Of a stretch of 37,459 bases of DNA, positions 1 to 24,856 are shown one piece after another. The notes beneath the pieces were generated by a model. The model searched no databases, was not told where the DNA came from, and worked only from the letters and a program-made list of their open reading frames with translations. Where the stretch lies: the IMG/VR virus record IMGVR_UViG_3300022562_000399; one strand, 5' to 3'. The DNA comes from a virus (Duplodnaviria > Heunggongvirae > Uroviricota > Caudoviricetes). The stretch's first letter is position 1; each line of letters opens with the position of its first letter. The translations under genes and the position numbers were made by a program.

Positions 1-2888
1 CCGTACACGGTTCCAGGTGCCCACCAGTAAGCCGCCCCATCATGCTCCAGCCCAATGATAGGAATGGTCTTTTGACCCCCGGTTCGCTGAAGGGCCGTTT
101 CAATCAAATTTTCAACAGAGTCGCGCAAATCAGCAACGGAGTTCGCCGCCAAACAGAAACCGTCCGAACACCCTGGTACTGGGCTCATGCACCCGGCACT
201 TCCTGAGATCCACACCGGAATCGGCCCTGGTGCTGTATTCCATGACCCAACCGGTGCGCAGTCACCAGTCGAAGTCAGACAGTTGTTGTGGCACGTGCCA
301 TCTCCCCCTCCCCCAATATCGTCGCAGTAAGCGTAACGAAGCGCGTTGCCAGTTCCGCCGTTCGTGTTGTCGCATACACCCCCCAATTCACAATCCGTAT
401 TTGTCTGGCACGCTTTGTACTTGTCCCAAGTCGTGTCACACGCTGCGTTCGTCGTGCACGCATCACGGGAGCCCCACGGCTGATTGATGCACTGTCCTCC
501 AGAACACAACCCATCGGGGGCCGTCGCACAAAACATGCAATCGGAGTTGTCCGTGCACGCTACTCTGCTGGCACAGTCGCTGTTATCAGTGCAATCACTA
601 CACGAATTAAGCCACTCCTGGCTCATCGTGTCCCCGAACATCGCATCACCGTCTTTGCCATTGATGCACGTGAACGTGTGATCCGACAAACGCTCTCGAT
701 TCGTCGGACTGCACTGACACGGGCCGCCATGATCGGTGCCACCGTAGCAATACCCACTGGCGTAGTAGTCGCACGTACCATCATCACAATCGGCATCCGG
801 ACAATCGGCATTTGTAGAGCATGACGGTGTTCCGACGTGGTTAATGCACACCGACCCGGAACAGATCGGATCGGGACTACAGTTGATTCCCTTCTTCGTC
901 CCACTCGAACAGTAATAGCGCGGCGACAAACCATACAGGCCAAGATCGTTTTGTCCGATCACCACCATCACAAAATCTGGGATCGAGGACACGCCCGAAT
1001 CATTGCGAAGATACAGTTGCGACATGTGGTCCGAATCCAACAGATCGTTAGAGTTGGACGGGGCTCCGTTCAGAATGCCGTAGGTTGCATCGGTCCACCA
1101 CCGCGTCACATCACCCGACGTAGCGCCGCCAACCGTTGCAACCGAAATCTCTGGGATGTCCAACAGCGCAATCTGGATACCCTGATGCACTTCATCGTTG
1201 TCAGTAATGCTGTCCCCAACCAAACGGAAGTGCACAGGGCCATCCGTATTCTGGTCGGTTGCGACAGCTTCCTTGACCACCACTTCCAGCTTCAGCCCAA
1301 CCTCCATCAAGATGTCCGAGATTCTAGTGCGGTCCGCCGATCCACCAGCCCCCGAACCCGTGTTGTCTCCGAGAACGTCCACCGAAGCCGTGGCTTGCTC
1401 ACTCAACTCATCCAACCCAGTCCCGCTGGTCGTCTCCAGGGCTACCATCTGATAGCTTTCGTTAATATCATCCACCACGTCGAACTCTGGTCCAGTAGCC
1501 TCCCACCCAGCACAGTCGGTGTTGTTCGAGCACAGATGAATTTGCAGCTTGTTGTGTGGGCTCGACCCACCTGTGTTCTGATCACGCGCCACAACCGTCC
1601 CAGAGATGGCTGTGACAATCCCGGCTTCATTGGCGGACCAACCAGTTGCTGGGCTCGGATAGGAAATCGACGCGGTGTCCACCCACACTTCGGGGCTAGT
1701 GTTCTGCCCCTGCGTCAGCACATAGCTCGTATCACCGTCGTGTGACGACGTACCGCTGGTCTGATCATCCGTACACGTCGGCGAATCAGTACAGCTTCCG
1801 TTGTACGGTGACGAAGGCGAGCCAGCAAGATCCGCTTCTGCCACAGTCCCGTTCGGAACGCTTTCAAAAATGCCGAAGGATACAATCGCCGCGTCAGCGT
1901 TCGTCCCGGTAGCCACCGCCAAGTCATCAAGACGAAGATTCAACGCCGGACCAAATTCGACACTCGCTACGTTGGCAATCTCAGTGGACGGACGAACTTT
2001 GAACTGCTTCCCAGCGCCACTCGATTGCAAGGAGCACGTCACTGTTCCGTCACCGTTGTCCTTCTGCGACATGGTGGCCTCGAACCACGCTGGCATATTC
2101 AACGTGACAGACACACCGTACGGAGATGGTTTGCACCACTGCTCTCCATTCGTCTGAGCGTGGCACTCGTTCGTTTCTACGACGGTATCTCCATCGTCAG
2201 TGCAAGCCCCCCACCCAGTAGGAACGCCTGCATACTTGTAGTTCACGCATTCCGATCCCGCTTGGGTACAGTCCGCAGCAACTTCGCACGGAGTGCACGG
2301 GTCGTCATTCGTGCCACCTGTGCAAACGTACTTGCTCGACCCGAAGAACGTATTCAGCTTCACCTTCCCGTTACCAAGCCATACGATGTCCGTGTAGCAC
2401 TGGTCGTTACTGCTGCCGTCCTTGAACGTCATCAAGCGATAGCTACCATCCGCCGACATGAGGTCGGGGCTGAACAACACATGTGCCGAAATTTCCCCAG
2501 TTGCGGAGAAGTAAGACGACCCAACAACTACCTTCTCGTCTGACTCGTCGAACCACAAGTGCCAATCGTTGTCGGCTGTTCCTGGCGTGATGCAGATGGA
2601 CGAATTGTTGCTCCCAGTTCTACAGTCGGCGTTCGACGAACAAAACCGCCCCTGATTCGCACCTGAGTCATACTGACACCAAGCTGTTCGTGCAGAGGCA
2701 GACGACAGCGTCGGATCTCCAGTCACCGAATCGAACACATACGTCCGATTCGTACTCTTGAACGGCACAGCGCAAGTGGTGGAGCCTGTATAGCACCCCG
2801 TCTCGAAGCCGGTCATGAAAACGACTTCTGCCGCCAACGCATTCGTAGCAAAGAAAACGCTTGCTACAAGACCAAGTAGTTTAGTCAT
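1..2888 (-). CDS. Partial (>962 aa, runs off the left edge) signal-peptide-bearing Cys-rich protein with an SGNH/GDSL hydrolase domain; not in the ORF track
   Basis: Hand translation from the ATG at 2888 (TGATG overlap with the upstream stop) is open to position 1. It starts MTKLLGLVASVFFATNALA|AEVVFMTGFETG. SGNH block I FRLVGDSIT at 1203-1217, block II-like VGGATSGDV, block III PDFVMVVIGQND at 945-956. Block V (DxxH) would lie beyond the window. Confidence 0.85.
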   Translation of the reverse strand, partial: MTKLLGLVASVFFATNALAAEVVFMTGFETGCYTGSTTCAVPFKSTNRTYVFDSVTGDPTLSSASARTAWCQYDSGANQGRFCSSNADCRTGSNNSSICITPGTADNDWHLWFDESDEKVVVGSSYFSATGEISAHVLFSPDLMSADGSYRLMTFKDGSSNDQCYTDIVWLGNGKVKLNTFFGSSKYVCTGGTNDDPCTPCEVAADCTQAGSECVNYKYAGVPTGWGACTDDGDTVVETNECHAQTNGEQWCKPSPYGVSVTLNMPAWFEATMSQKDNGDGTVTCSLQSSGAGKQFKVRPSTEIANVASVEFGPALNLRLDDLAVATGTNADAAIVSFGIFESVPNGTVAEADLAGSPSSPYNGSCTDSPTCTDDQTSGTSSHDGDTSYVLTQGQNTSPEVWVDTASISYPSPATGWSANEAGIVTAISGTVVARDQNTGGSSPHNKLQIHLCSNNTDCAGWEATGPEFDVVDDINESYQMVALETTSGTGLDELSEQATASVDVLGDNTGSGAGGSADRTRISDILMEVGLKLEVVVKEAVATDQNTDGPVHFRLVGDSITDNDEVHQGIQIALLDIPEISVATVGGATSGDVTRWWTDATYGILNGAPSNSNDLLDSDHMSQLYLRNDSGVSSIPDFVMVVIGQNDLGLYGLSPRYYCSSGTKKGINCSPDPICSGSVCINHVGTPSCSTNADCPDADCDDGTCDYYASGYCYGGTDHGGPCQCSPTNRERLSDHTFTCINGKDGDAMFGDTMSQEWLNSCSDCTDNSDCASRVACTDNSDCMFCATAPDGLCSGGQCINQPWGSRDACTTNAACDTTWDKYKACQTNTDCELGGVCDNTNGGTGNALRYAYCDDIGGGGDGTCHNNCLTSTGDCAPVGSWNTAPGPIPVWISGSAGCMSPVPGCSDGFCLAANSVADLRDSVENLIETALQRTGGQKTIPIIGLEHDGAAYWWAPGTVY

Positions 2889-5641
2889 CATGGGCAGCTA
2901 TTCGCTCCAGCCAATTTCGTCCAGGTACTTTCACCTGCTGGGCACGCGCAAATGTCCCCAGATTGGTCAACAATGATTTGCCCGAAGTTGTTGCTTGCCG
3001 AACACGAGGGCTCCGCAGAAGGAGCTTTCCACAATCTCAGATCACCGCCACGCCCGCTTTGCCCCAGATCAGCAAGTGCAAACGCTCCACTCTCTTGCAA
3101 CAACATCAAGTTCTCACCCCCATTCTCTTGAATGTAAAATTGGTTGCCGCTTGCCCCTCTCATCTTCAAAAAAACCTGAGCCAAAACCCCAGCAACCAAC
3201 GTCGGGCTAACGCTGAACGACTTCGTGCCGTTGGCATAGTACATGTGCAGGGGAGTCGCGGACGAACTTGTCCAATCCAAAGAAGAATCTGTTGAGTTGT
3301 ACTTCACCCCAACTTGATCCGTGTCCCCCCATGTATGCAGGACGTTCGATCCGGCCCAACGGTCAGGAATGTCGGACGCCAGAATGTCGTTCCCCTGCTT
3401 GTACACGGTTGGTGCCAACGTGAGTACCACCTCACCAGCATCTCCATTCGTGCTCGTAAACTCAGGGTAATTCAGCTTGGTGTATTGGCCGACATCCGTC
3501 ACACCGTTTGCGATGTACACGCCGGGGGGGAAGAAGTTGCTGCTTTGTCCAGGCCCCTGCGTGCTGAACGCGGGAAGCGTACACGACCCACACTGGGCGT
3601 TGTACCCGGTGTCAGTGTACGTGTCGTCGTAGCCGTGGCACTGGCTGCCGTCAATGCCGCACGAGCAAATGCGACACACGTCGGTGGCACTCAATTCCAG
3701 AGCAATCACGAAGCACTCGTCCAAGTTACCGTCGAACACTTCCGGACCCGTGTCCCACGAAATCTCAAACGCCGCCGTGTTGTCACCCACATCGACAGTG
3801 GTCGCCTTCGTACCGTTGACCGTGGCGTTGATGTAACCTTTGCCACCGTTCCCACCAGTGCTGTACGTCATGACCGCGTGTCGCCACGTCCCATCAATCG
3901 GCCACGAACTATTGGCCGAGAACCACTGTTGATCCCGGATCATAAAGTCGAGTCGGCTGTTGGTTTCGTCCGTCCGTAACCAGTAGCCCTGCGTGTCGGC
4001 CGCGCCACGCTTGCGCATGATCTGCTGCACGGTATTCGTTCCGCCAACATCAATGTTGCGCGCCCAGCACCCAACCGACCAGTCTCGCGTACCACCGTCT
4101 AGATTCGTCGTACCGCCGCAGGTAGCATCCGTGCACGAGAAATACTCGTTCGTGGTCGTGCTCCAGTTCAGCAGAGCCGACTTCGCACCCTCACGATGCG
4201 CGTTGTTGCTGGGCACCGTGTTGTTGTCGGTCAGGTCACAGGACGCGCCACACGTTGTCGCCGTGTCGTTCAACCGGTTGCCAGACGCCTCGTCCATCCT
4301 CCACACCGACAAGAAGTAAGGCGTCCAGTCTGGAGCCTGGGCAAAGGAGCAATTGCTACCGTCCGCCAAACAGGGCTCCTGCCCGTCGAAGTACACATCG
4401 CCTTGAAACGACGCCGCTGGCCTTTTCGTGTCAATCTCAATCGACGGTGTAAACGACACCGTGGAGATCATCCGTCGGCCGGTCCCAGACATCGTGTCGG
4501 GCGTCAGCGTCCCGTCGATCAACAGGTTCGCCAGATCATCCTGCGGAGGGTGATAGTTCGTCCCACTCACCACAATCTGGTCCGTATCCAACCCAGAAGC
4601 GTTCAGGTTCTTCTGAGCTATGAAGGCAAACGGGCCACCAGTATTCGGCTGCGGGTTCATGAAGACGTTGCGGAACGTAATGAACGCCTGCGGTGGTGCA
4701 TCGACCAAATCGTTGTCCACCTCGATCACGATGAACGCATTGTCTGGGTTCGCCGTCGCATCGAACGACTCAGGAGCCTCGACGTTCAAATCTTCCAAGT
4801 CGATCATGTTGACGATCGACGCATCACTGCCGTTGAGAACGTGCAAGAAGCCCTTCGCCTGCCCGGCAGACGTAAACGTGTGATCGTACGTGATCTCCCG
4901 CATCGAGAACGTCGCCAACCCCTTGCCGGAATTGCTGGCATCTACGTTGACCCCCCAACCCTCGATCTTGTCAAAACGACTGCGCGTGATGTGGAAGTTC
5001 GTCGCCCCCTCGTCCATCAGGATCGCATCGACTCCGGCATTGCGAAACCTCACATCATCGAGCGCCGTGCCAAAATCCAACCGGCCCTTGTAGTGAATCA
5101 GCGTATCAGCGGACCGTACCTGGGCAGCCGGACAATACCCGGCCGACTCACCACCAGACAGACTCAGATGCCGGATCGGGGTGTTGTGCGTAGACGTACC
5201 GGCTGTCCCGATCTCTATGATCGTGTCGCCGACACTACCGCACCACTCGATCATGGATGGCCCAGTAGATCCAGACCCCTCCTTTCCGTAGGCACCACGC
5301 AATTCAACTCCGTTCGGAATCACGAGCGTGTCATTGATCAAACAGTGGCCCGGTGGAAAGTACACGACACCGTTTCCGTCCGTTCCCTCAGTACCACCGG
5401 TCGCGGCAGCAATCGCGGCCTGGATCGCCTGCGTGTCGTTGGTCACGGCACTCGCTTCAGACGACCCGTCACACACGGGATGGTACCCGTTGCTGAAGTC
5501 TCGGACGTTGTACCACCCCTCCGGCAACGGCTCGGACGGGTTACACCCAGTTCCATCCGAATAACAGTTGAACACGGCGGCTTGAGCCGCTGCGGGAAAC
5601 AGGGCCAGCGCCAACACGAAAACGATGTGTCGTACTTTCAT
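2888..5641 (-). CDS. 917-aa signal-peptide protein: pectate-lyase-3-like beta-helix plus LamG/concanavalin-like jelly-roll (tailspike- or adhesin-like)
   Basis: Starts MKVRHIVFVLALALFPAAAQA|A. WYNVRDF...NDTQAIQAAIAAA..GVVYFPPGHCLINDTLVIPNGVELRG is the typical tailspike beta-helix start. WRMDEASGNRLND...WSVGCWAR...WRHAVMTY...FDGNLDE matches the Laminin_G_3 pattern. 24 Cys by hand count. TAATG overlap with the upstream gene. Confidence 0.8.
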   Translation of the reverse strand: MKVRHIVFVLALALFPAAAQAAVFNCYSDGTGCNPSEPLPEGWYNVRDFSNGYHPVCDGSSEASAVTNDTQAIQAAIAAATGGTEGTDGNGVVYFPPGHCLINDTLVIPNGVELRGAYGKEGSGSTGPSMIEWCGSVGDTIIEIGTAGTSTHNTPIRHLSLSGGESAGYCPAAQVRSADTLIHYKGRLDFGTALDDVRFRNAGVDAILMDEGATNFHITRSRFDKIEGWGVNVDASNSGKGLATFSMREITYDHTFTSAGQAKGFLHVLNGSDASIVNMIDLEDLNVEAPESFDATANPDNAFIVIEVDNDLVDAPPQAFITFRNVFMNPQPNTGGPFAFIAQKNLNASGLDTDQIVVSGTNYHPPQDDLANLLIDGTLTPDTMSGTGRRMISTVSFTPSIEIDTKRPAASFQGDVYFDGQEPCLADGSNCSFAQAPDWTPYFLSVWRMDEASGNRLNDTATTCGASCDLTDNNTVPSNNAHREGAKSALLNWSTTTNEYFSCTDATCGGTTNLDGGTRDWSVGCWARNIDVGGTNTVQQIMRKRGAADTQGYWLRTDETNSRLDFMIRDQQWFSANSSWPIDGTWRHAVMTYSTGGNGGKGYINATVNGTKATTVDVGDNTAAFEISWDTGPEVFDGNLDECFVIALELSATDVCRICSCGIDGSQCHGYDDTYTDTGYNAQCGSCTLPAFSTQGPGQSSNFFPPGVYIANGVTDVGQYTKLNYPEFTSTNGDAGEVVLTLAPTVYKQGNDILASDIPDRWAGSNVLHTWGDTDQVGVKYNSTDSSLDWTSSSATPLHMYYANGTKSFSVSPTLVAGVLAQVFLKMRGASGNQFYIQENGGENLMLLQESGAFALADLGQSGRGGDLRLWKAPSAEPSCSASNNFGQIIVDQSGDICACPAGESTWTKLAGANSCP

Positions 5642-8600
5642 TAGTCTAGAAACTCCACAGCGACTCCCACCACATACGAGGAGTCCACCTCGCTAACCGT
5701 TCCGGTAGTCGTAGTCGCGTCAACTACCGCCCTGAAGTAAGCCGTATCATCTGGCTGGCACGTACCATTGCACGTGAGTGCTGTAGTATTCTCCGCCGTC
5801 TCGATGTCGTTCGCCGTCGTGAACGTAATGTCCACCGACTGGGCAGTGCCCCATGTCGAATTGACTGCGTCCGAATCGCCACGGCACATACACGACACGT
5901 CGAAGCCAATCGTATTCGTGGCCGCCTGAGTCTGAATTGCAGACAATTGCACCGTAACCGGCGTGTTTGGGTTGTACTCTTCGGGCAGCTTCATCGACCA
6001 CTCAAACACCCCGCTGGCATTGTCGTCACACTGCACCGAATACATCGACGGCCCAGAGTTCACCGTGATCCCGGCTGGAGCCGTACAAATAGACCCATCG
6101 GCCACCATGTTCTGCACCGGGGGCTCAATCGTATAGGCAGGCAACGGACGATAGGACCAACTCGACAACGAATGCGCCACGCTCGTCAAGTTGACGTACT
6201 TGTTCCCTTTGGCCTTTACATTCGCCAGGGGTGAGATCCAGCGGATACCGCGCCCAACCCCAGTGAACACGTTGTTCTCGATCACGTTGTCCTGCATGTC
6301 AGCCCCGGAATTGCACCCGCTACTGGCCATCCATACGAACGCGCCGTCCTGCGTCGTCGTCACACCATCGCCGATCACCGTGTTCCCACGGATCTGATTG
6401 CGCTCCATCGTGTTGCTCGTTCCACCATTGCACCACAACGCGACCCCGGCGATGTTACCAGTCGAGGCCCGGAGGAAAATCTGATTGTTCTCGATGATGT
6501 GGTCGTCCACGTTGTTGCTGGTTCCGTCCGCGTACACCATGATCGCCGCGTCGGTATTCCCCGAGCCGTCCCCGCAGTTCTTCAGGACGTTGTCGGTAAC
6601 GATGCTGTTGGACGACTTGTCGATCGACACACACTGGCCCGTCGCGACGTTATCAACCACGTTTCCGGTGTTCGTGATGAACTTCGTGTTCGCGTTCTCG
6701 ATCCCGGTGAAGTTCACGTCTCGGATCTGGTTGTGTGCCACAGTCGAATTGATCGTTTTGGCGACACTGATGCCCATGGACGAATTGGTGCCGTCACCAA
6801 TCACGACGTTGTCCGTGATGATCAACCCCTCCTGCAACGCATCCGTGCTCCAGAACTCCATCCCAATTCTGTTGAAGTCCTCGCACACGTTGCCCGTGAC
6901 TTCCGTGAAGTTCGAGTCCTCACCAATCCACAGACAGTTCGAGTCATTGCCTCCAGCACCATTGCCGAGAGTCTTAAAATGGTTCCCCTTCACCTGGCAG
7001 CCGATACAGTTCTGGTTGAAAACCAAGCCGTAGCCACCGTTCTTCGCAGCACCGATGTTCGTGAACAGGCTGTTCTCCACGATCATACGGTTTGTGTTGG
7101 CAGACGACCCGACCACGCGGATTCCGCGATAGCCAAAATCGTCGAACCACACGTTGCTGATCTTCATATCGTCATTGTCACCGGTCAGGTTTCCAACCTT
7201 GAACGCGGCCACATCTCCATACGACGCTTGGTTGGAACTGTTTCCGTCTAGCTTGAGGTCCGACATCGTGAAATTGTCAGTCCCACTCGTGACGTTCGTC
7301 AAAAAGTAGTTCGACACCGCATCGTCGGTGGCTTCCTTCAAAACCGAGTTCCACCCACAACCCTTGATGTGCACGTTGCTCTTGTACGTCAGCGTAGACG
7401 ACACACAGGTCGCATTGCACGGGAACTGCACGATTCCACCGCCAGCCGCATTGGCTGCGTCGATCGCGGCTTGGATCGCGGCCTGATCGTCGGTCGAGTT
7501 GTCGCAGGCTGCGCCGCCAGCGTACGCCGGGTTCGTGATATCGAATATGGCGGCGTCGTCCGTGTACGAACACAGCCACGACGTGCCGTTACACACGCAA
7601 AGCTCGTCGGTGTCGGTGTCGATGTAGCTGATGCCCGGCGTCCGGAAGTTGCACGCAATCGGCGACGTTGATGCGGCGCCAAGAAAGCCGAGCATGAGCC
7701 CGGTATTGACGATGTTGCGGCCGTTGAACTCGGTAATCGCATCCGGGCCAGCCAAGCCATCCGGAGTGTACGAGTACCACTGGCGGTACGCTTCCCCACT
7801 ATCAGGGAACGTGGAGAGCCCAGGAGGCCCCGCGAGCATGGGCCAGGTTTCCGGGATGAATATTTGCTGGCCAGCGATAATCGTAGCATCGTCTGCGGCG
7901 TTGTTCGTCTGCTCGACTATGGCTGGTGTTCCGACTCCACCGGCCCCGGCAACGGCGAAGTTGTCGAAGTTCAGCAGGAACTGCATCTCTGGCGAATAGT
8001 CTGGGTTCGCCTTCAGCACAATGTAAGCGTCTTCTGGGTTATCGAGGGCTTGGTTCGCCTCGATGTACCCGTTCTCTATAGAGATGCGATTGATGGCGTT
8101 GTTCGGCTGCGCGCAGTCCGCATCAGCAGTACAGGATGGTGGGCCACACTGGTCAGTGCCAGAACAATCAGCGTTCGTCTCACAGGTGATGTTGTCAGTC
8201 ACACACCGGTCGTAGATACAGGTCTCGGCTCCCGTGCAGTCGCCGTTCGTGGCGCACGTAGTAGTATCCCAGCACCTCGTGATCGCATCATCACACTGCG
8301 TGTTCGTGGCCAACGTGCACGATCCTCCGTCCGTATCGACACGAAGGAAGCCATTCGCCGTATCCGACCCGGTCGTATCGAACGTGAAGTCACGAAGCGT
8401 AAGCTGGGCTCCAGCCCCTCGGCCTTCCAAGTTGAAATCAATGACGTATCCAACGACGTTGTCCGCTCTCCAATTCTCGAACACGGTATTGAGTGCGCCG
8501 TTCTCAAACTGCACGGCAGGGCCATCGAAGGCCGAGAACTGCACGTTCTCCAGTCGTGTGCCGGAATCAGTCGTTTGCCGGTAACGAATTGCGGTGTCCG

Positions 8601-11600
8601 CTCTGGTGCCACCACCTCCAGCGCCACCATAGAACAGCACATCCTTGATCCAGGCGTTGTGGTAATTGTCGGTCTGGTCGTCGTACTCTAGGATCGTACC
8701 TCCGGCCGCGCCAGTCCAATTGAGTCTCGAATTTTGAGAACCTACAGTCGCCGACCCTCGGCACCCTTGCAAAGCCACGCTATTCGACCACGCCAACGTA
8801 GCAGTCAGCGAACATGTGGTGTTGCAGGGCAACCGTACAATGCCCCCACCATCCGCCTCGGCCGCATCATGAGCCGCCTGAATGTTCGTAGAGTCACACG
8901 TGCCAGACACACGGTACACACCCAGGGCGCTATCCCGAACCGTTGCGGAAACTACATCAGGCGTTCCCGCCGCGAGGGAGAAGTTGATCTCACCGTCGTC
9001 AGCAAGACGAAGGGTCGCATCGGTGGATGCGGTGAACGTACCCGCATTCTCTCCGTCTTCGATTTCGACGGCACGTCCACCTCCAACCACTTGCGCATCG
9101 ACGTACGCCTTGATGGACTCGGCGGACGCTGGCTGCGTAGCAGTAGCGGTCGCCATCGTGTCGTCGTCAAGCAGGGTCGCCGCACCATCACACGTTCCCG
9201 TCAACGGAGTAACGACCGTCCAGGCATTCCCATCGCACCAGCAAAGTGTCCCCTGCCCGGTGGTCGTGTCCTCGTAAAAGTCGCCTAGCTGGCTCGTCGT
9301 GCAGGTATACGGCGCGGTTCCAGAGGACGGAGCCGTCAACTGCTTCCAAGTCGCAGCCGTCGTACACGACTCGAAGTAGGATTGATTGCAAACGTAGTAC
9401 ACGTCAAGCGTCGTGTCGTGGCAGAGCGATTGCCCCTTGGCCTTTCCACTGGTCTCACCTCGGCAGTTCGACGAGTCGAATGCGTCAGCAAAGCGCCGAT
9501 AGAGGCCGCCCGTGGGGCTGTTCGAGTCACCGACCAGCAACTTGCCGCGAGACGTGTCGAAACGCACCTCGCGGTTAAACAGAGAATCATTGATGCGTTC
9601 AGGAACTACCGGACCTTCACCCAACCGATCCTCGTTGTCCGACGCACTGATGAAGTTGCTGACGAACGACCCCGACATGGACGCGCCAGCAGCCAAATAC
9701 GTCGAGTCGAAGTCACCCCCAAAGAAGCCGTCGATGTTGTTGAACGAACTATTCTCGATGCGCAACCGCTCACCGGACGTGCTCGTCGTCCTCGTGCGCG
9801 CGATGACGTAGTAGGGTGGCGGGTCGCTGTCGAGAGCGGTGCTGGTAATGTCCCAAGTCACATCTTCGAGATGGATGTTGAGAGCGACGCTGTTGCTGGC
9901 GGCTCCATAGTTCAAGTCAATGAACCCGGCGTTGTTCGCACTCGACCCCATCTCCGCGTTGGTCTCGAAACGGCCGTTGGACACACTCACAATCGCAGCA
10001 GACGACGGGTTCGCCGTCAGGTCGAAGTACAGCAGGGCACGACCGGTCAAGGTCGTCACTTGATAGTCAGAAGTCCACCGATCCAGCGAGAACCCCTGCA
10101 AATTGGACGACGCAGGAAGGACGGTACGGATCGCGTACACGCCGAAGCCGTCGAAACGCACATTGCGCGCGTGGAAGTTGGTTATGCCGTTCGGCAGGTA
10201 GATGGCCGAATCGGTGTTTTGCCCGAAATGCGTCTTGTCCACGTCCAGGAAGATGTCTGCACCATCAGATTGCAGCCAATACTTCGGCGTGGTCGCACCG
10301 GCCCGCAAACTCATGCCCCCAAACCGGTAAAACGAATAGCCACCCGGCGCCGTGTTTGCGATGTGGAACGCCGCACAGTCCGTGCCTGGAGTACACGATC
10401 CTCCAGCCGTACCTTCCCACACAATGCGAACGTCTTTGTTCGACGACAGCCCACCAAGCAAGTCCGCACTCTTCAGGTTGATCGTCGCCGACAGGTCATA
10501 CGTTCCGGGGTGAATCTTGATCACGGGGAACCCGGTGGACGAATCCGACGCCGACACGCAGTTGGTTTGTGCGTTGTCGATCTCAGCCTGCAACGCCGTA
10601 GTGATGTCGGTACCGTCCAGCCCCTCTCCGAAGTAGATTGTGTCACAAGCAGGAGCCACGTTCGCAGTAGCGGCATCGACGTATGCTTTGATCGACTCCG
10701 CCGACGCTGGTACTGAGCCCGTCACTCCGGTGGTGAACGTATCGTCGTCAATCAACTCCGACTGCTGTATGTAGTCAGTGCAATCCTCGGCCACCCCACC
10801 AGCAGTCACCCCACCAGCGCCAGTGCCAGCCGCACAATTTCCACCATTCCCAGCAAGAGCCGTAGCCGTGCCGACATTCAACGCCGACGGAGCCGTGAAG
10901 ATGAAGTCGTCTGTGCTGGTCGGGTCCACCTGCACGATGTCGTTCAAGTTCGGCGTGTCCGCGATGTTGGACAGATTGACGGGGACCACCACGCCATCTC
11001 TCAAGTTCGCGGTCAGAACATCAGGAGTGCCAGTCGTCAAGATGAAGTTGATGTCCGCATCGTCTGCAATGCGGAACGTCGAATCAGCCGACGCTGTAAA
11101 CGTGCCGGCGTTGTTCCCATCCTCCACCTCGAACGTCTGGCCTGTTGCCCCCGTTCCGACTTGCTCCCAACTCCCAGATCCAACTCCACAGGTCTGCGCA
11201 AACGCCTGATTACAGAACCACAGAAAGCCAGTTCCAGTCTCCTGACAATAGGTACCACCCTTCGCGCTCGTCTGGTCGCAGTCGGCCACCTTGGTCGTGG
11301 GGTAGTACGTGTTGTAACTCGCCGTCTCGTCCCCGGCCCGCAACGCATCCCAATCCGACCGGACGGTTAGCTCGCCAACGGCTGTCGGATTCTGATTGAC
11401 CGAACTATTTGTGATAGTCCCGGCGTCAAGAATCACACGGTTTCCAGTCCCAGACGTTAGTTCGAGTATGTCTGACGTTCCGACCGGCAACGGCAGATCC
11501 TGATAGGCCGTCGGCCAATCGGTCCCAACGGAACCGGCAGTCTTGAAAATATTTCCGTCAACACCGGCATCGGCCTGGTTAAAGCTAGATGTTTCTACCT

Positions 11601-18149: not shown

Positions 18150-21100
18150 TCAGACGGCCGGGTCTGGATCTACCACACGGAACTTAATTGTCACCCGTGC
18201 CTTTCCAGTGGTGGAAGTGGCCAACTCCACGCGGTAGACTCCCACCGTCATCGCCGCAGCCTGGAAAGTCCCCCAGCCAGCGCCTTGGCCGGTGAATCCG
18301 TTGTCCCTCGGGTTCTCGGACAGGCGATAGCCGGTCGTGGATAGGTAGCCATCGGTCCCGTTCCAGTATCCAGCCGCGATGTAGTAGTCCTGGTCCGGTG
18401 TGTCCGCGTCTCCAATCAGGATGGCTTCTCCGGTCACAGAGGACGAGTTGAACGCCTCCATTATCTCGATCTCCACCGCGTCGATGATGTGGTTGGCCGG
18501 TAACTCCACCGAGTCTATCAGGTGCGTGCCAACTCCCAGCGCCTCGGCGTTGACCCAGAAAGTCTTCGACTGTTGCACCGTGGGCTGCACCCCACTCGTG
18601 CGCATGGAACCGGTGGCGGCCAGACCCATGACCCCAGAAGCAGGGCTTACTGCCGCCGACATAGGACGCTCAGACCTCTTCACTGTAATCACCGTCTCTC
18701 GCCACGGCCCACGCAGGCGACCCACCCCACGCACGCGCACGGAGACAGGGATGTCTCCATCTCGGGGAGTTACCAACGCCACCTCGTGGTAGTTGGGGAT
18801 GAAGTTGTCGGTGTCGTCAACGACCTCATCCTCCTCTTGCTGAGACAACAGCAACGGAATCAAAGCGTGATTCTGTACCCAGTGGTTGGAGTAAGTGTTG
18901 TAGTCCCCGTCCACAGACTCGGGCTGCCCAGCCATGATGGCGGCAGCTAGGGAAGTTTGTCCGATGATCACCCACGTGGTGGCAAAAGCCCCCGTATCTT
19001 CGTCCACATACCATGGGGCGTCTTGCAGACGGACGGACATGTTGGAGTCATCATCGTCACTAAAGAACGGCCCAGTATAATCCTCTTCCACAGTAACAAC
19101 CATGGGGTACAGAACACCACCAACCGTGGTCTTCCGCTGCCTGAACAACACCAAATTCGTGAACGCGAACACGGTAGACGTGGCAGTGCCGACCGTGTTG
19201 ATCGTGAACACGTCTGCCGTGGACACAGTGACAGTGTGCTTTCGTAGGTTCCACTGGTCTTGCGTGATACCACCAATGGCCACCGCTCCACCAGCCACCG
19301 TGACAACATCCCCAGACACAAACGGGTGCCCCTTCCATACGATAGTCAAAACCCCATTGACCCCATTCGTAGAGACGTTGGTTATGCTCGACTCGTAGTC
19401 TGAGTAGTCAATTCTCTCCTCGAACACGTCCGCATCCTCGCTCACCTGGAACGGGTAGCGCGTGACGACTCCCAACAATGGAGCACCAGTGAACAAGTCA
19501 GCCGTGTCCTCTCCCAGTTGCACCTCGTAGTAGGCCGCACCAGGAGCGTCGGTCCAGCTTGCTCGCAGGATCGCGTGTGGGCTCTCCCCATAAACCGTGA
19601 CTTCCAACTGGTCGATCACTGGAGCGTCTTCTGGGCTCAACGGTTCTGGTGACAGGGCTGCCATGACTGGGAGACTGTTGTCCGCAGTGTAGACGCGCTC
19701 GTCGTACTTCACCGCCGACAGTTCCACCTGAGTCTCACCGCGCGGCGCAATGCCGGTGACGATGGCCTTCTCGTCGTAGTTGGTCGTCTTCCCGAAGACG
19801 AAGATCGCGGGCTCCAAGGCGTACTCGTCTCGCGGTTGGGTGGCGTCCGCGTCAACGCCACGCTGCCGGTTGTAGAGGGTCAGCGGTCGGTCCTCGGCCG
19901 CCAACGCTCCAGGCAGGATGATGTGGCGATCCGTCGCCCCGCGCGTTACCACGTACGGGCCCTGCACCGAGCCGTCCGGATTGCGCCAGCACAACTGGTG
20001 CTCTTGAGTGTCGCCCGCGCGGAATATCCGCATCTCCGAGAACCAGTAGACCGAGTCCTCGTCCGGAACGTCCACGCTGTTGCCGCCAGCGAGGATCTGA
20101 ATGGATGTGGTGTTGGCCGTGTCGATGATGGCGCCGGTCTTCTCCAGGTAGATCCACGTGTGCTCAGGGCACAGTTCAGCCGCGACCACAAAGTCCGACG
20201 TGGCCGAGTTGACGAACGGGATAGTCCGCAAGTTGATGCGCACGTTCTTGCCAGAGTCACCGACCACCTTGTTGCCTTTGACCCAGCACGACACACCCCA
20301 CTCTTCTCCGGAGTGATCGGCCGAGACCCAGTCCGCAGGCGTCAAGTTGGTCTGGATCAAGCCCCAAGTGTTCGCGCCCGCCGCGCCCTTGTACAGCCAC
20401 GCGCAGTAGTCGCCCGTGTGTGCCTTGCGGCTCTTGCCTCCGAGTCCGATCTCGAAGGAGTCTACCTCCCACAGATCGAAGCCGTCGGCGCCAAGTTCTC
20501 CGTCGCAGTTGACTTCCCAGTTGGCCGAACTGGCGTGCATGTAGATGTAAGCGTTGGCCTTCCACACGTCGGAGTAGAAGATCGCTCGCTCCAACTCTAT
20601 CAACTGCCACTCTTCGGTCAGGATGATGTCGGCGCACGTCTTGTTGGGGTTGGAGTACCCCGTCACGCCATCGTAGGTGCCGTTGGCCGTGGAGTATTCG
20701 CGAATGATCATCTTGACGGAGACGCCCACCGTCTGCGGAGTGGTGGCTCTCACCCACGCGCGTGCTCGCCAGATCGTTCCCTGGGCGAACGAACCAAACT
20801 CGAACTCCACGCCGTCGGTGTCCTGGGTGACTGCCGTGGCGATGCCAACGTAGAGATCGTCCGACGGGTTGCAGTACCCCTTGATCTCGCACACGCCCGT
20901 GCCTTCTCGCGCCGTGCTGTTGCCATCCGCGTCCACAGGTTGCGTGCCAGCGAAGACAGACTTCGGCGTTCCCACCTGGTCATGCGACACCAGGAGGCAC
21001 ACGCCACGCGCCCACTTGTCGTTCTTGAAGGTCGTGGCGGTGGACTGGTCCTCGAAGTCGTACTGCTTGAACCAGTCGGACCAGCGCCCGATCTCGGTGT

Positions 21101-24100
21101 TGGTGCCAGCAGCCGACCAGCCCGTGGGGACCGCAGCCGTGGGATCGCCCTGCCAAGCGTTGTCGGTGCCGTCCTCCAGGAACAGATCGTCCGTGTAGGA
21201 GTCCCAATCCAAGTCTCGATCCGCCACCAGGACGTTGGTGTCGTCGTGGTAGTGGTCGAAGTTGCCAGAGTCCGACCAGTCCGCCATGGGGTGCGAGATC
21301 AGAATGAGATCCCCCAAGCCGACGAGCAAGCCCTCCAACTCCGTACTGAAGGTGTACGACACCCGCTGGTATCGGTTGACGGCCGCGATATAGGACCCTT
21401 CTCGTCGCGCGTGCTCTTGGTCCGTGATGCCACGGATGCGGATGTTCGCCGGATTCTCCATGTAGTTGGAGTCGTAGTAGGCGTGCACCGTCGTGGGCTT
21501 CCACGTGATGTTGTCGATGTACTCCACCATCACAGAGTCGGGGCTCTGCAAAGACATGAAGGAGTAGTTCACCTGCAAGGTGTCCTTCACGATGTTGTCA
21601 GGGCCGAAGACGCCTTTGTAGGTGCTCTGCGCTCGGTCTCTGACTATGGACAGCTTGGAGCCGTTGAAGATCACGCGCGAGCGAACCACGCGGGCCGCCT
21701 CGTTCATGGCCTGCCACAGCGTCGTCTTCTGGTCATAAACCGCATCGAACCAATCCTCTCGAATGGCCGCGATGGTTGCGATCTCTCGGAACGCCGTCCA
21801 GTCGATGGCGTCGTCCGACAGGCCTCCGCCGTACTGCTTGGCGCCCGTCAACAGGTTGTTGGCGTTGCCGTTCGTGGCCATGTCAACGATGGCCCACGCC
21901 GGGTTGCGGGTCGCCACGTCTTCGATGATCTCCGCGACTGCATCCAGTTGCACGTTGGCCGAGCCTTGATTAGCCGAAGCCGACGTTGCAGACGTAGTCG
22001 GGACCGTGTACTGGAACGTCCACCGATCCAAGACCGTGACCACGTAGGTGCCGTTGATCTCCGTGTCAGGGATGCCACCCACCGATCCGGACTGGCCAGA
22101 GATCGTCACCGTCTGGCCGGTCTCCAGGTTGTGCGCTCTCGCGAGACCCTGGTCCGCATCCGTCAGGTGAAGGTCGGAAGGGTCGAGATCTACCGTGATC
22201 ACCTTCGACCCGTTGGCCGTGTTCAGGAAGCCGGTCAGATCCAGCGCCACCTCGGCGCCGCCGTACACGCGCAGCTTGCGGGTCACCACCACGTTGGCGT
22301 AGTTGGCCGTGTTGCGGTTGATGTCTGCCGACGCCACGATACGGGTGGCCAACGTGGTCACCCCTGGATACTGGGCCTGGTTCGTCACCAGATTGCCGCG
22401 CAGCCCCATCCACACGATCTGGGAATACCACCCGACGTGCTTGGGGTTGTTGTCGTGCTTGAAGGTCGGGCGCCGCAGACGTGCCTGGTAGCGTCCGGCC
22501 GGAACAGGGTAGGTCAGGGACAGACGAACCGGACCGTCCGTCGAAGGAGACCATAGGCCCACCGTGGAGTAGCGCGAGCGAACGCGCCCGTCCCATCCGC
22601 CCGCGAGCCATTGCCACCAGCCCTTCTGCTTCCAGACCGTGCGGAAGATGCCCGACCGTGCCCGACCGTTTCCGGACTCGTCGTTGTTGTTCAGCGGTAG
22701 CGCCTTCCAGCGCCCCACCGGGTTGCCGGAGTCGTCGATCTCTTGCACTTCCGGACGCAGCCCGATGCCCACGCGGTAGCGGTCCTTCTCGTCCTGGTGG
22801 AACATGGGAGGGCCGCCCACGTCGAAGGTGACCTTGTTGATCTGTGTACCGCTCGCGTTGATGATGTGGGGACCTTCGTAGTCCTGCCGGATGTGGCACT
22901 CCGAGAACACCCCGTCGTTCCCATTGGTGTCGTCCGGCACGTCGTAAGACGTGTACGGAGCCGTCGAGGGAAGCCCGTACACGGCAGCGTCCGCTGAACC
23001 ATCGTAGAACGTGCCGTTGATCGTCAGAATACAGGTGGTGTCCGATGTGCCGTTGGTGGCCGACGAGTTGGTGATGGTCTGCAACCTCACCGGGTGCACC
23101 AGTAGCTCGTGGTGTGCCACCTCCATCGCAGGAGCCGAAGCCGACAGCGAGCCAGCATCCGGGTCATGACCCCAGAACTTGTCGAAAGAGTCGTGGGTCT
23201 GCTTGCTCGCGTCGTGAGAAATATACTTTCCGTCCGAATCGCTATACTGGGCGAACTCATACTGCTTGAAGTTCTGTGCTCCCTGGGAGCCCCCATCGAA
23301 GTTGGGGTAAGCGACGGGAGGCGTCTGGAAGTCCTTCATGTGGGCTGTGACCAGGCCCTTATAGCCTATCCACACCTGGGCGTTGGCCCACTTGTCGGTC
23401 GTCCAGGCAGGCAGAGTGCCACCAGCCTTCAACGCCACCGTGATCCGGTGGTTGTTGGGGTCGGTGGTCTTGTCGATGTTCGTGATGATCAGCGACTTGT
23501 TGATGTCGGTGGGGTAGAGTTGGCCGCGCGTCTGGTTCGGGATCGCGCCAACCGAATCCTCCGGGCCCAGCAACTCGACGCTGCCCAACGAAGTGTTGAC
23601 TGCTCTGCCGCCAGGGAACCGCGCCGGGTTGTGCGTGCCGCCCGTGGTGTTGATGTTCTCGTTCGGCTCGTAGATGTAGTACGCGACCTCGGGCCGGTAC
23701 GAGTCGCCGTCGTCCTTGGCCACCAGCAGGGAGCCGATCTTGAACTCGTGCACCTGGTACTTGCCATGGCCCAAGCACATGAGGCTGTACTGGATCTGCC
23801 GCGCGTCGTTCGATCCCGGAGGCGGGATGAACTCAGCCTTGGCAAGGTGTTGCCCCTCGTACTCCGTCCACTGTTGCGCGATGTGATCGGGAATCACCAG
23901 GTGCTTGCCATAGGTAACTTGGATCGCTGCGTTGGGTTTGGCCTGGTTGGCTCGCGCCCCGAACTCGTACAGCGGACTTTCAGACACACTCCGGGGTTGG
24001 CCGGGGATCTCGGGCGCCAGCAAAAAGGTGTTGATCAGGAGAGTGGCCCCCAACACGATCACAGCGCCGATGGCTTGGGCAGCCGATGCAGTGCCAAGTG

Positions 24101-24458: not shown

Positions 24459-24460
24459 CT

Positions 24461-24856
24461 TCAATCACTCAGGGGCCGGTAGTACCGGATCGTCTGGTAG
24501 CCACACTGGAACATCCACTTCAAAGCCGTGAAGGCCACCGGCTTCGTGATCTCGGTGTGCAGGATGCCACCGCCATCGTTCTCCAGATACACTCCAACGT
24601 GGGCCGCGTCGTCCGTGCGCCGAGCCATCACCGCGATGTCGCCGTCCTTGGGCTTGGCCACCAGTCGGTAGCCGCAACGCTCACACATGGCCTCTTCGTC
24701 GTCGGCCAGGAGGTTGATCACCTCCGTGCGGTTGTTGATGTCCACGACCACCGGAGGCAGGGTTCGTCCGTAGAACCGAGCCTGCACGAACCGCGTGAAG
24801 TCCCAGCAGTGCCCCATGCTCTTGCCCACCAAGTTGTTGACCTCGTCCGCCGTCAT
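24461..24856 (-). CDS. NlpC/P60 family tail assembly protein (lambda gpK-like)
   Basis: Catalytic pattern HCWDF...AAHVGVYL...GILH, located between DUF1833 and the tail tip gene. Confidence 0.88.
   Translation of the reverse strand: MTADEVNNLVGKSMGHCWDFTRFVQARFYGRTLPPVVVDINNRTEVINLLADDEEAMCERCGYRLVAKPKDGDIAVMARRTDDAAHVGVYLENDGGGILHTEITKPVAFTALKWMFQCGYQTIRYYRPLSD

Follow-up and report, generated by a model that had tools for sequence, protein, structure and literature searches.

In a siphovirus of ~103 kb from marine sediment, g3118 is a single, genuine late gene, and its product strings five right-handed beta-helix modules together in a single chain of 3118 aa. In our best explanation, which we consider reasonably likely, the product is a Sec-exported, disulfide-stabilised, probably homotrimeric fibre with five glycan-binding or glycan-cleaving heads, the first of which (module 1) comes from a bacterial family of exopolysaccharide (EPS) loci. 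The explanation combines an open reading frame, a module layout, beta-helix homology, a bacterial affinity of module 1 and a locus-wide signal-plus-cysteine pattern, all read from the data, with the export, disulfides, trimer, activity and targets that we infer. The window is the whole stretch of DNA analysed (37,459 nt), and the following genes in it are needed for the argument.

1-2891 (running off the window start), minus strand: g1303, signal peptide, 66 Cys, faint GDSL/SGNH match
2888-5641, minus strand: g917, the downstream partner, signal peptide, 24 Cys, PF12708 beta-helix (2e-9) paralogous to module 4
5641-14997, minus strand: g3118, 3118 aa, Sec-type signal peptide, five right-handed beta-helix modules, 98 mature Cys
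14979-18068, minus strand: g1029, the upstream partner, fibre-like, signal peptide, 32 Cys
18150-24464, minus strand: J, tail-tip I-J fusion, 2104 aa, 0.6% Cys, no signal peptide

Siphovirus late genes lie on either side of g3118, which sits in the late operon immediately after the tail-tip gene J. The matches of J to PF13550 (2.7e-14), phrog_469 (5e-78) and phrog_31 (central tail fiber J, 3e-54) indicate that the locus is the tail-fibre slot. As an earlier note on this DNA had stated, one 3118-aa protein is encoded at 5641-14997: the ORF list and the translation gave a single open frame with an ATG start and no internal stop, and GGAG is found ~10 nt 5' of the ATG. The 3' end of g1029 overlaps the g3118 start by 19 nt, the g917 start overlaps the g3118 stop (TAATG), and g917 and g1303 overlap at ATGA; four genes of this signal-bearing block overlap one another. 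The gene call on the JGI contig is shorter (3027 aa). Because the alignment of the bacterial module-1 homologues to g3118 begins at the signal-peptidase site, the 3118-aa start is favoured over the JGI call and the upstream start is taken as real. The chain can be divided as follows, from the N-terminus to the C-terminus.

14926-14997, minus strand: Sec-type signal peptide, aa 1-24 (MRSRFVKAAISAVATVLLSSPALA, cleavage before ATWYV), three K/R in the n-region, hydrophobic core, ALA at -3/-1
13300-14925, minus strand: module 1, aa 25-566, complete copy of a secreted right-handed beta-helix family, 22 Cys
13225-13299, minus strand: Thr-rich linker of 25 residues, aa 567-591, GPTTTTTTLAPTTTTTLSTTTTTLP, read from the translation
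12688-13224, minus strand: region with no assigned fold, aa 592-770, 6 Cys, last ~60 residues paralogous to aa 1393-1448
11278-12687, minus strand: module 2, aa 771-1240, beta-helix-type, paralogue of module 3
10657-11277, minus strand: connector 2, aa 1241-1447, small Cys/Trp knot, repeated 'EVEDG' domain (1286-1350), shaft ending in the SAESIKAYVDA motif
9442-10656, minus strand: module 3, aa 1448-1852, beta-helix-type, self-BLAST match to module 2 and profile match to AlgE
8923-9441, minus strand: connector 3, aa 1853-2025, two Cys/Trp knots, SAESIKAYVDA motif, second 'EIEDG' domain
7678-8922, minus strand: module 4, aa 2026-2440, beta-helix, paralogous to the N-terminal domain of g917 (BLAST 3e-19)
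7552-7677, minus strand: connector 4, aa 2441-2482, Cys/Trp knot, 4 Cys
6148-7551, minus strand: module 5, aa 2483-2950, beta-helix
5644-6147, minus strand: C-terminal domain, aa 2951-3118 (168 aa), predicted all-beta, 6 Cys

The strings quoted in the earlier note are all present (ATWYV at aa 25, LSLQAGDTICRDAG...DDIGFME at aa ~517-557 and the Thr linker GPTTTTTTLAPTTTTTLSTTTTTLP at aa 567-591), and the module starts it proposed at 12676, 10647, 8920 and 7550 (aa 774, 1451, 2026 and 2483) fall within a few residues of the borders from self-BLAST and alignment. Its label 'choice-of-anchor-Q-like' for 13325-13450 found no NCBIfam match: a scan of g3118 aa 1-600 and of the homologue P0007 returned no family at E<=0.01.

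Judged by its homologues, module 1 and the signal peptide ahead of it are a full-length copy of a secreted beta-helix family that bacteria encode in exopolysaccharide-synthesis loci. The family, which is uncharacterised (P0007/P0067), has 58 representatives at E<1e-3, mostly of 580-700 aa, with the domain beginning at aa ~20-35; module 1 is a full-length member with 42% identity to the closest representative, P0007, and the same signal-peptide position. In the tree, module 1 groups, with 100/98 support, with bacterial sequences from a Myxococcales EPS locus, from Binatia MAGs and from a cellular contig of 100 kb, and the organism titles of its nearest relatives are Myxococcales and Binatia-type bacteria. 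Family members in EPS loci adjoin Hepar_II_III lyases, glycosyltransferases and Wzy. In four other phage contigs, the members keep their signal peptides and lie within blocks of signal-bearing, Cys-rich genes, one of which contains a sulfatase; the family has undergone several transfers between bacteria and phages. The proposal that module 1 is a stand-alone secreted bacterial protein is supported as to the full-length copy and the bacterial clade, but the family is not restricted to hosts and occurs also in phages. In a comparison of the best matches of module 1 and of the rest, module 1 has bacterial secreted relatives as proposed, but the sequence searches found no phage-fibre homologue of modules 2-5. 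Viral relatives of the remaining modules are protein-language-model look-alikes only, namely viral fibre-type clusters for module 2, the connector and the C-terminus. For the g3118 architecture as a whole, no relative was found.

The joining of a bacterial-type module to a phage-type chain could in principle come from an assembly chimera of a bacterial gene and a phage fibre gene near 13,200-13,350, which we consider highly improbable. No stop interrupts the frame at either putative join, the phage gene g1029 terminates inside the 5' end of module 1, and codon usage is continuous along the gene, with module 1 like the rest (RSCU r 0.88). The JGI contig and the window are identical over 19,952 bp, and the Logan index (run X1) has 80/80 sampled words of 12900-13700. 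P/T linkers behind this domain are normal in the family, and homologue P0006 carries a similar one behind the same domain. On the other side, one sample is the sequence source for all of the locus, and in the one run that contains it the Logan contigs stop at 12,051, 12,340 and 15,092, the pieces inspected leaving 12,341-15,091 uncovered.

The claim of five concatenated beta-helix heads in one chain was borne out by PF13229, by the AlgE profile and by the models of modules 4 and 5. In the module 1 family, 20 of the 26 aligned members match PF13229, and the family profile matched mannuronan C5-epimerase and lacto-N-biosidase in the PDB at 1e-6; g3118 aa 20-570 alone gave no Pfam match. Modules 2 and 3 match each other by self-BLAST with E down to 1e-15, and module 3 also matches the PF12708 region of g917 (1.6e-4). 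Module 5 matched AlgE4 at 6.8e-9 (phmmer), the phrog_2234 tail spike at 4e-5 and, under the Pfam cut-off, PF13229 at 8e-5. A joint profile of modules 2-5 and g917 matched AlgE6 at 6.6e-13 and AlgE4 at 5.7e-11. The AF2 models of modules 4 and 5 were comparable to solved beta-helices (VIA) with Z 20-23 and rmsd 2.7-4.3 A over 228-336 residues, in a prediction whose mean pLDDT over aa 2020-3118 is only 48. The module 4 model reached Z 22.8 to 7chu, 21.5 to 8ja4 and 20.3 to AlgE4 (rmsd 2.7-2.9 A), and the module 5 model reached Z 20.3 to PL6 alginate lyase and 20.0 to the RbmB lyase; the model of aa 575-1450 (the region of modules 2-3; pLDDT 37.6) was unusable. Modules 2-5 probably arose by duplication inside the phage, with g917 as a further paralogue. 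Module 4 contains a 12-Cys insertion (aa 2227-2295; window 8113-8319) that is absent from g917 in the alignment.

The Azotobacter AlgE C5-epimerases (A-modules; AlgE4 2pyg, AlgE6 5lw3) are the best match to modules 2-5 in both sequence and structure (6.6e-13; Z 20.3, rmsd 2.8 A). Some AlgE proteins have two A-modules per chain. AlgE epimerases are secreted, and export is also predicted for g3118, by Sec rather than type I secretion; unlike AlgE, g3118 has no R-modules, and the catalytic stretch is non-conserved in every module. The AlgE catalytic motif is YG(F/I)DPH(D/E), with Tyr149, Asp152 and His154 in AlgE4. HMMER aligns the GYGFDPHEQ stretch of AlgE4 and AlgE6 to profile positions that are not conserved, and DPH occurs in 0/5 aligned modules. 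The description of the heads as 'depolymerase-like' fits their beta-helix fold, but its enzymatic half can only be proposed, the AlgE catalytic motif being absent from all modules.

The five heads would stand in series, spaced by the Thr linker and by short repeated trimeric connectors. Self-BLAST of g3118 matched aa 1286-1350 to aa 1974-2038 (52% identity), aa 1415-1442 to aa 1942-1968 (71%) and aa 711-823 to aa 1393-1503. The aa 592-770 region has no Pfam or PHROG match, and the Pfam scan of connector 3 gave weak GYF_2 and DUF2510 matches only. Three copies of aa 1286-1450 (connector 2) were predicted to form an in-register homotrimer with ipSAE 0.77 (best control 0.00), contact agreement of at least 77%, partner pLDDT of at least 63 and same-residue contacts along 1378-1440. 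In the calibration, 21 of 30 proteins whose solved structure is a pair of one chain attained the ipSAE mark, against 0 of 23 single-chain structures; this calibration applies to two copies, not three, and the score could come from solved phage fibres that the model has memorised. The earlier label 'jelly-roll' for the last 168 aa is backed only by a low-confidence all-beta prediction (AF2, beta strands only, pLDDT about 45-57). The domain has no Pfam or PHROG match, and among its protein-language-model look-alikes the nearest 100 are, without exception, viral hypothetical proteins of ~170-190 aa.

Next, we examined the export signature across the locus. Signal peptides were called by a manual rule (positive n-region, hydrophobic h-region, small residues at -3/-1), which picked out g1029, g3118, g917, g1303 and a 209-aa gene, that is, every gene in the run of five that separates J from the lysis cassette. 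The Cys content of these five is 2.6-8.1%, compared to mostly 0-0.8% in the other virion proteins (three at 1.6-3.1%), and their mature Cys counts (32, 98, 24, 66 and 16) are all even. Export appears to be maintained across the whole locus, since the neighbours carry signal peptides together with high, even Cys numbers and the phage-borne family members keep theirs. The suggestion that the signal peptide came with capture of a host gene agrees with its location, which is the same in the secreted family, but the feature is common to the whole five-gene locus and is kept in other phages; it is neither peculiar to a captured module nor the remnant of a single capture. In our reading, g3118 is one of five translationally coupled, signal-bearing, Cys-paired genes that fill the tail-fibre slot up to the lysis cassette.

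A classical tail fibre assembled in the cytoplasm, with an N-terminal hydrophobic stretch that does not serve export and with incidental or metal-binding cysteines, is improbable in the face of this pattern. Beta-helix tailspikes normally fold in the cytoplasm, g3118 is positioned after J, and the JGI gene starts lie downstream and omit the signal peptides of g3118 and g1303. But the alignment with the bacterial homologues starts exactly at the cleavage site, five adjacent genes have the n-h-AxA grammar and Cys-rich products with even Cys counts while the other virion proteins are mostly Cys-poor, and four capsid relatives have ordinary, Cys-poor fibres, with no signal peptide in their tail genes by the same heuristic. 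We infer export of g3118 from this sequence grammar. The protein probably folds and works outside the cytoplasm, the compartment where phage particles are built, because it has a secretion signal and a first unit copied from an EPS-cluster enzyme. Its chains would be threaded via SecYEG, would fold and form disulfides in the periplasm and would reach the outside upon lysis, where they may bind, and perhaps cut, several different host surface polysaccharides.

For the final location of the exported protein, we favour, by a narrow margin, a free or envelope-associated enzyme/adhesin array over a virion-fixed part, which seems somewhat unlikely. In the latter case, g3118 would be a side fibre maturing after export: folded and oxidised in the periplasm, it would dock on J, directly or via g1029, when holin, endolysin and spanin break the envelope, and each particle would receive a five-headed, multi-specific fibre. 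The canonical tail-fibre slot after J, the late operon and coupled translation, the predicted in-register trimers of the connectors and the viral fibre-type look-alikes are consistent with a side fibre, as are the fibre-like motif block that g1029 has in common with g3118 (aa 1363-1483) and the lack of a further side-fibre candidate in the slot. However, the mature N-terminus is an enzyme module that aligns with the start of free bacterial enzymes, and no anchor domain was found in g3118 by Pfam or PHROG, although one of an unrecognised kind may lie elsewhere in the chain. In SU10-type phages, the homologous signal-bearing genes, including a sulfatase, lie between terminase and portal and seem to be cargo, not tail. 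J (2104 aa) might by itself be the receptor-binding protein, and no published precedent was found for assembly across a membrane barrier. Applied to the whole block, such a two-compartment assembly would have five Sec-exported, disulfide-locked proteins fold in the periplasm and dock on the cytoplasm-built tail tip only at lysis, with one head and its signal peptide derived from a host EPS enzyme; we regard this as somewhat unlikely.

The g3118 protein can be compared to known phage tailspikes and depolymerases (Acinetobacter phage Fri1 gp49, Klebsiella Kp7 gp51, CBA120 TSP1-4, phi92 gp150 and K5A lyase), which have the same right-handed beta-helix (Z 17-23 to modules 4 and 5). Like them, g3118 is located at a tail-fibre locus and would target glycans, its trimer and targets being predicted. 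In those tailspikes, each chain has a single beta-helix and a virion anchor at its N-terminus, lacks a signal peptide and contains few Cys, whereas g3118 has five helices in 3118 aa, a Sec signal, 98 Cys and no anchor domain found. Phages CBA120 and G7C achieve polyvalency via separate tailspike genes joined by N-terminal adaptor domains. The comparison with these two phages made in the earlier note is apt for function, but not for gene organisation: the heads of g3118 are in one ORF, and Pfam and PHROG found no CBA120/G7C-type adaptor domain in it.

A lysogenic-conversion product of benefit to the host, acting as a cell-surface adhesin or EPS-remodelling enzyme in the manner of MAT fibres, WceF and RbmB, is very improbable. 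The lambda region after J is a known moron site (lom), and the module 1 family occurs in bacterial EPS loci. Exported tailspike-like or fibre-like trimers are also found in bacteria: WceF of Pantoea stewartii is a Tat-exported, tailspike-like trimer encoded in an EPS cluster (PMC7949094), and the mosaic adhesive trimer (MAT) fibres of Bdellovibrio bacteriovorus are signal-bearing, ~1000-aa, trimeric, phage-fibre-like mosaics outside the cytoplasm (Caulton et al. 2024, PMC10769870). But no promoter or terminator above chance was found between J and the signal-bearing block, nothing promoter-like separates the block from the late operon, and no integrase was seen within the window. WceF is likened to g3118 by description, with a Tat signal instead of Sec, and Vibrio cholerae RbmB (PDB 9ozd) matches the module 5 model (Z 20.0). 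WceF, RbmB and the P0007/P0067 family are stand-alone cellular proteins of 480-740 aa, whereas in g3118 the domain heads a polyprotein-sized chain. MAT fibres are cellular and g3118 is phage-encoded; they have a conserved ~130-aa domain after the signal peptide and often an S74 chaperone-protease (PMC10769870), a family that the Pfam scans did not find in g3118. Environmental phage genes for beta-helix proteins or CAZymes carry signal peptides in a minority of cases: deep-sea sediment viruses encode NosD-like beta-helix proteins, with a signal peptide on one contig (PMC13452462), and 5% of prophage CAZymes are signal-bearing (PMC13507307). Concatenated modules, locus-wide export signals and Cys pairing are not described in these two reports.

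The g3118 locus has its whole fibre slot in the grammar of secreted, disulfide-bonded proteins, with one module traceable to a bacterial EPS-locus enzyme. It departs in this from the general view, to our knowledge, that tailed-phage particles are completed in the cytoplasm and that tailspikes are Cys-poor and without export signals. If the proteins join the particle only after export, a new assembly route for tailed phage would follow; alternatively, phages may secrete large multi-specific glycan-targeting arrays as accessories. Both readings bear on phage passage through biofilm matrices in sediments, and g3118 is a concrete case in which host slime-synthesis loci and phage receptor-binding genes have exchanged an enzyme. 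By placing the starts of g3118 and g1303 downstream, the JGI gene calling dropped both signal peptides, and since automatic calls can remove them in this way, such cases may be under-counted in annotation.

g3118 (protein P0001) is a single open reading frame of 3118 aa (5641..14997, minus strand, ATG start) with no internal stops in its translation. It was recovered from a marine-sediment metagenome. All large genes of the window lie on the minus strand and constitute a siphovirus late module, and the JGI contig L002, which is 100% identical to window 1-19952, reveals the rest of the locus downstream of g917. The genes are as follows:

36124-36903, minus strand: prohead protease, late module
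33747-34775, minus strand: major capsid protein (phrog_1623, 9e-88)
late module, minus strand: tail terminator and major tail protein
26215-28824, minus strand: tape measure protein
late module, minus strand: minor tail proteins
18150-24464, minus strand: J, I-J tail-tip fusion of 2104 aa (PF13550, 2.7e-14; phrog_31 'central tail fiber J', 3e-54)
14979-18068, minus strand: g1029, the first gene after J
2888-5641, minus strand: g917, after g3118
1-2891, continuing on L002 17062-20973, minus strand: g1303, 1303 aa, with signal peptide, 66 Cys and only a faint GDSL/SGNH Pfam match
L002 21028-24077, beyond the window start: 209-aa gene, then the lysis cassette

The lysis cassette on L002 consists of an SLT lysozyme, a holin-like 101-aa protein and a lipoprotein, which may be a spanin. 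J is almost twice as large as lambda J, and it appears from profile matches to carry, fused at its N-terminus, a segment resembling tail assembly protein I (Lambda_tail_I, 0.0024; phrog_32, 5e-5). A GGAG stands ∼10 nt before the ATG of g3118 at 14997, and the first 19 nt of g3118 lie within the end of g1029. The g3118/g917 overlap reads TAATG and the g917/g1303 overlap ATGA; g1029 starts with an ATG at 18068 that is also preceded by GGAG. Promoter- or terminator-like sites in 1-19000 did not exceed those in shuffled sequence, and none was found between J and the block formed by g1029, g3118, g917, g1303 and the 209-aa gene. The JGI gene caller starts g3118 at residue 92 (91 codons cut) and g1303 ∼265 codons too late, so that the signal peptides of both are lost. 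The alignment of bacterial homologues to the first beta-helix module of g3118 begins at the first mature residue, which argues that the long forms are real.

We also considered whether g3118 is an assembly chimera, which we regard as very improbable. The window record and the JGI contig are exactly alike; 80 of 80 sampled words from 12900-13700 are present for run X1, the only sequencing run found to hold the stretch, in the Logan index; the frame is open through the Thr linker and the 5' end of module 1 overlaps the phage gene g1029; and composition is continuous along g3118. With 44% of the Logan contigs of X1 read, those on the stretch end at 12,051, 12,340 and 15,092 and leave 12,341-15,091 uncovered, a gap owed to that coverage and speaking neither for nor against a chimera. 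These ends (window 12022-12340 and 15092) flank module 1 together with the beginning of module 2. They may mark strain variants or branching of the graph at the cassette, or may stem from nothing more than the partial read-out of the run. The stretch was found in one sample only when others were searched. Against 5.8 billion proteins, the sole match to the whole g3118 architecture was g3118 itself. Neither megablast nor tblastn matched the structural module, aa 1-600 or aa 590-3118 to any INPHARED phage. Scans of IMG/VR with module 2, g917, the J C-terminus, the module 4/g917 alignment and the connector domain 'EVEDG' returned no relatives, nor did scans of JGI metagenomes with module 5 plus the C-terminus or with the EVEDG connector.

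The borders of the g3118 parts were set by self-BLAST of 150-aa chunks and by alignment A2 (modules 2-5 and g917):

aa 1-24: signal peptide
aa 25-566: module 1
aa 567-591: Thr linker
aa 592-770: region of unknown fold
aa 771-1240: module 2
aa 1241-1447: connector 2
aa 1448-1852: module 3
aa 1853-2025: connector 3
aa 2026-2440: module 4
aa 2441-2482: connector 4
aa 2483-2950: module 5
aa 2951-3118: C-terminal domain

The starts that the earlier note had proposed for the four further modules lie a few residues at most from these borders. Modules 2 and 3 are paralogous (about 30% identity, E down to 1e-15 by self-BLAST), and the connectors share repeats, the 'EVEDG' domain (52% identity) and an SAESIKAYVDA motif (71%). 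Among the paralogues, module 4 is nearest to the N-terminal domain of g917 (3e-19), and it has a 12-Cys insertion (aa 2227-2295) missing from g917. The motif C...G..(F/Y).D....L.(C/W).C.....W ends each beta-helix module (7552-7677, 9300-9441, 11140-11277) and recurs at the C-termini of g917 and g1029, with weak likeness to DUF2510 and GYF_2; it may represent a small disulfide-knotted capping unit.

g3118, whole and in pieces, scored below every Pfam threshold, and Pfam, PHROG and NCBIfam scans of its sub-segments gave almost no matches. Family profiles were more informative. PF13229 was matched by 20 of 26 aligned members of the module 1 family, whose profile matched mannuronan C5-epimerases and lacto-N-biosidase in the PDB at about 1e-6. 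The joint profile of modules 2-5 and g917 matched AlgE6 (6.6e-13) and AlgE4 (5.7e-11) across its first ∼200 positions, g917 matched PF12708 (2e-9), and module 5 alone matched AlgE4 (6.8e-9) and a tail-spike PHROG (4e-5). AF2 runs used an alignment of paralogues only. No usable model was obtained for aa 575-1450 (pLDDT 37.6), and that of aa 2020-3118 (pLDDT 48 overall) was confident just for aa ∼2030-2220. With this weak model, Foldseek gave beta-helix matches at a TM of only 0.1-0.45. In an exhaustive structural comparison of the same model, module 4 matched Geobacillus virus E2 ORF18 (Z 22.8), an alginate epimerase/lyase (Z 21.5) and AlgE4 (Z 20.3), with rmsd 2.7-2.9 Å across ∼230 residues; module 5 matched a PL6 alginate lyase (Z 20.3) and the V. 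cholerae RbmB lyase (Z 20.0), with rmsd 3.9-4.3 Å across ∼320-336 residues; and many phage tailspikes followed at Z 15-19. The beta-helix modules predicted earlier are thus supported by the profile matches and, for modules 4 and 5, by Z scores of 20-23 on a weak model, the fold of modules 2 and 3 being assigned by homology only. The AlgE catalytic stretch GYGFDPHE lies opposite non-conserved residues in all modules in the A2/profile alignment, so AlgE-type epimerase activity was rejected; catalysis of any kind by the g3118 modules is unproven.

Oligomeric state was addressed by co-folding three copies of the connector segment aa 1286-1450 alongside three controls. The connector trimer gave ipSAE values of 0.77, 0.77 and 0.73, and the best of the three controls 0.00. 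In calibration, which was carried out with two copies and not three, the ipSAE mark was reached by 21 of 30 proteins whose solved structure pairs two copies of one chain and by 0 of 23 whose solved structure is a single chain. In the model, contact agreement was 77% or higher and pLDDT 63 or higher. The many same-residue contacts at 1378-1440 indicate a parallel, in-register three-fold shaft in the model. This prediction supports, and does not show, trimerization of the g3118 connector; likeness to solved phage fibres may contribute to the score.

An exhaustive HMMER search of 1.84 billion representatives found 58 relatives of module 1, most of them 580-700 aa long with the domain starting at residue ∼20-35. 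They begin with typical signal peptides, after which the sequence reads A(T/V)YYIGxFxGS, and Cys makes up 2-7% of them. The closest relative, P0007 (42% identity), comes from an uncultured Myxococcales MAG, where its gene, on a contig of 69 kb, is divergently oriented from a heparinase II/III-type lyase and adjoins GT4 glycosyltransferases, UDP-glucose/GDP-mannose dehydrogenase, asparagine synthase and an AlgX/GDSL protein. P0067 shows the same synteny, with Wzy and a flippase (80-kb contig), P0008 belongs to a Candidatus Binatia MAG, and a cellular contig of 100 kb encodes P0015. An IQ-TREE tree of 39 domains groups module 1 with precisely these bacterial members in one clade (support 100/98), and by its relatives the module is a bacterial-type secreted protein. 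The host-type origin proposed for module 1 holds to that extent; the family is not host-only, being found in phage contigs too. Its phage-borne members (P0010, P0017 and P0029, ∼1000 aa; P0041, 602 aa), on contigs with SU10-type or P22-type portals, are dispersed across the tree, which implies at least three changes of context. The codon usage of module 1 resembles that of the rest of g3118 (RSCU r 0.88) and its branch is long (1.06), so any transfer would be old; recent capture was rejected on that branch length and because codon usage is fully ameliorated. Another homologue, P0006, has a P/T linker after the module-1-type domain and then further Cys-rich domains, so linker-mediated fusion is normal for the family. 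A near-copy of P0006 is encoded on L097 (CAXQPB010000050.1), whose 'Nitrosopumilus' label was rejected at 65% GC; the contig is almost certainly mis-binned.

By a heuristic rule, each of the five block proteins has at its N-terminus a positive n-region, then a hydrophobic core, then a site of AxA type. Their Cys content is 2.6-8.1% (8.1% in the 209-aa protein), compared with mostly 0-0.8% in J, tape measure, capsid and other virion proteins; the three higher exceptions are a minor tail protein and a small ORF (1.8-3.1%) and the major tail protein (1.6%). The mature Cys counts of g1029, g3118, g917, g1303 and the 209-aa protein (32, 98, 24, 66 and 16) are all even, for which chance is about 3% under random parity. 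Other phage contigs with the module 1 family have four consecutive signal-bearing genes including a sulfatase (L006), two each (L100 and L101), or a run of seven, of which one has 88 Cys (L102). The predicted signal peptide is a trait of the locus as a whole and is not peculiar to one captured module; its presence on all five block genes and on other phage contigs calls for revising the suggestion of the earlier note that it may have come from capture of a host secreted gene. On L006 (9622-18579; also L007), of SU10-portal type, the genes encode 132, 1029, 1389 and 443 aa and lie between terminase-side genes and the portal; the 443-aa product is a PF00884 sulfatase, an enzyme type unexpected in a virion. 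On L102 (807-16141), of P22-portal type, the 88-Cys protein in the seven-gene run is 1233 aa (7.1% Cys), and the portal gene beside the run contains an intein with an HNH domain.

The data fit a g3118 chain that is exported, disulfide-bonded and trimeric and whose five beta-helices are directed at glycans. Such a chain may be a virion fibre, as its slot after J, its late operon with coupled translation, its predicted trimeric connectors and its viral look-alikes by protein language model suggest. It may also be a free or envelope-bound array, since the enzyme module itself forms the mature N-terminus, no anchor was recognized, the linker resembles those of secreted CAZymes, and homologous signal-bearing genes in other phages lie outside the tail module, together with a secreted sulfatase. 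The published near-precedents, none of which describes an exported fibre set that is both concatenated and locus-wide, are WceF, a Tat-exported, tailspike-like trimer encoded in a bacterial EPS cluster (PMC7949094); the Bdellovibrio MAT fibres (PMC10769870); viral NosD-like proteins of deep-sea sediment, one with a signal peptide (PMC13452462); prophage CAZymes, 5% of which have signal peptides (PMC13507307); and the genes with signal peptides in Porphyromonas phages (PMC10367356).

Four complete IMG/VR relatives of 92-120 kb (G001, G002, G004 and G005; contigs L088-L096), with capsids 48-54% identical, served as controls. By the same heuristic, their tail and fibre genes have no signal peptides, and Cys is only 0-1%; the exported block would therefore be specific to the window phage and not inherited with the capsid lineage. 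J, sought by protein and then by PF13550, was not found in five capsid relatives, whose tail modules differ. The tail-tip/fibre module of the four controls is entirely different from that of the window phage, which shows that modules have been swapped between the head and tail-tip regions in this lineage.
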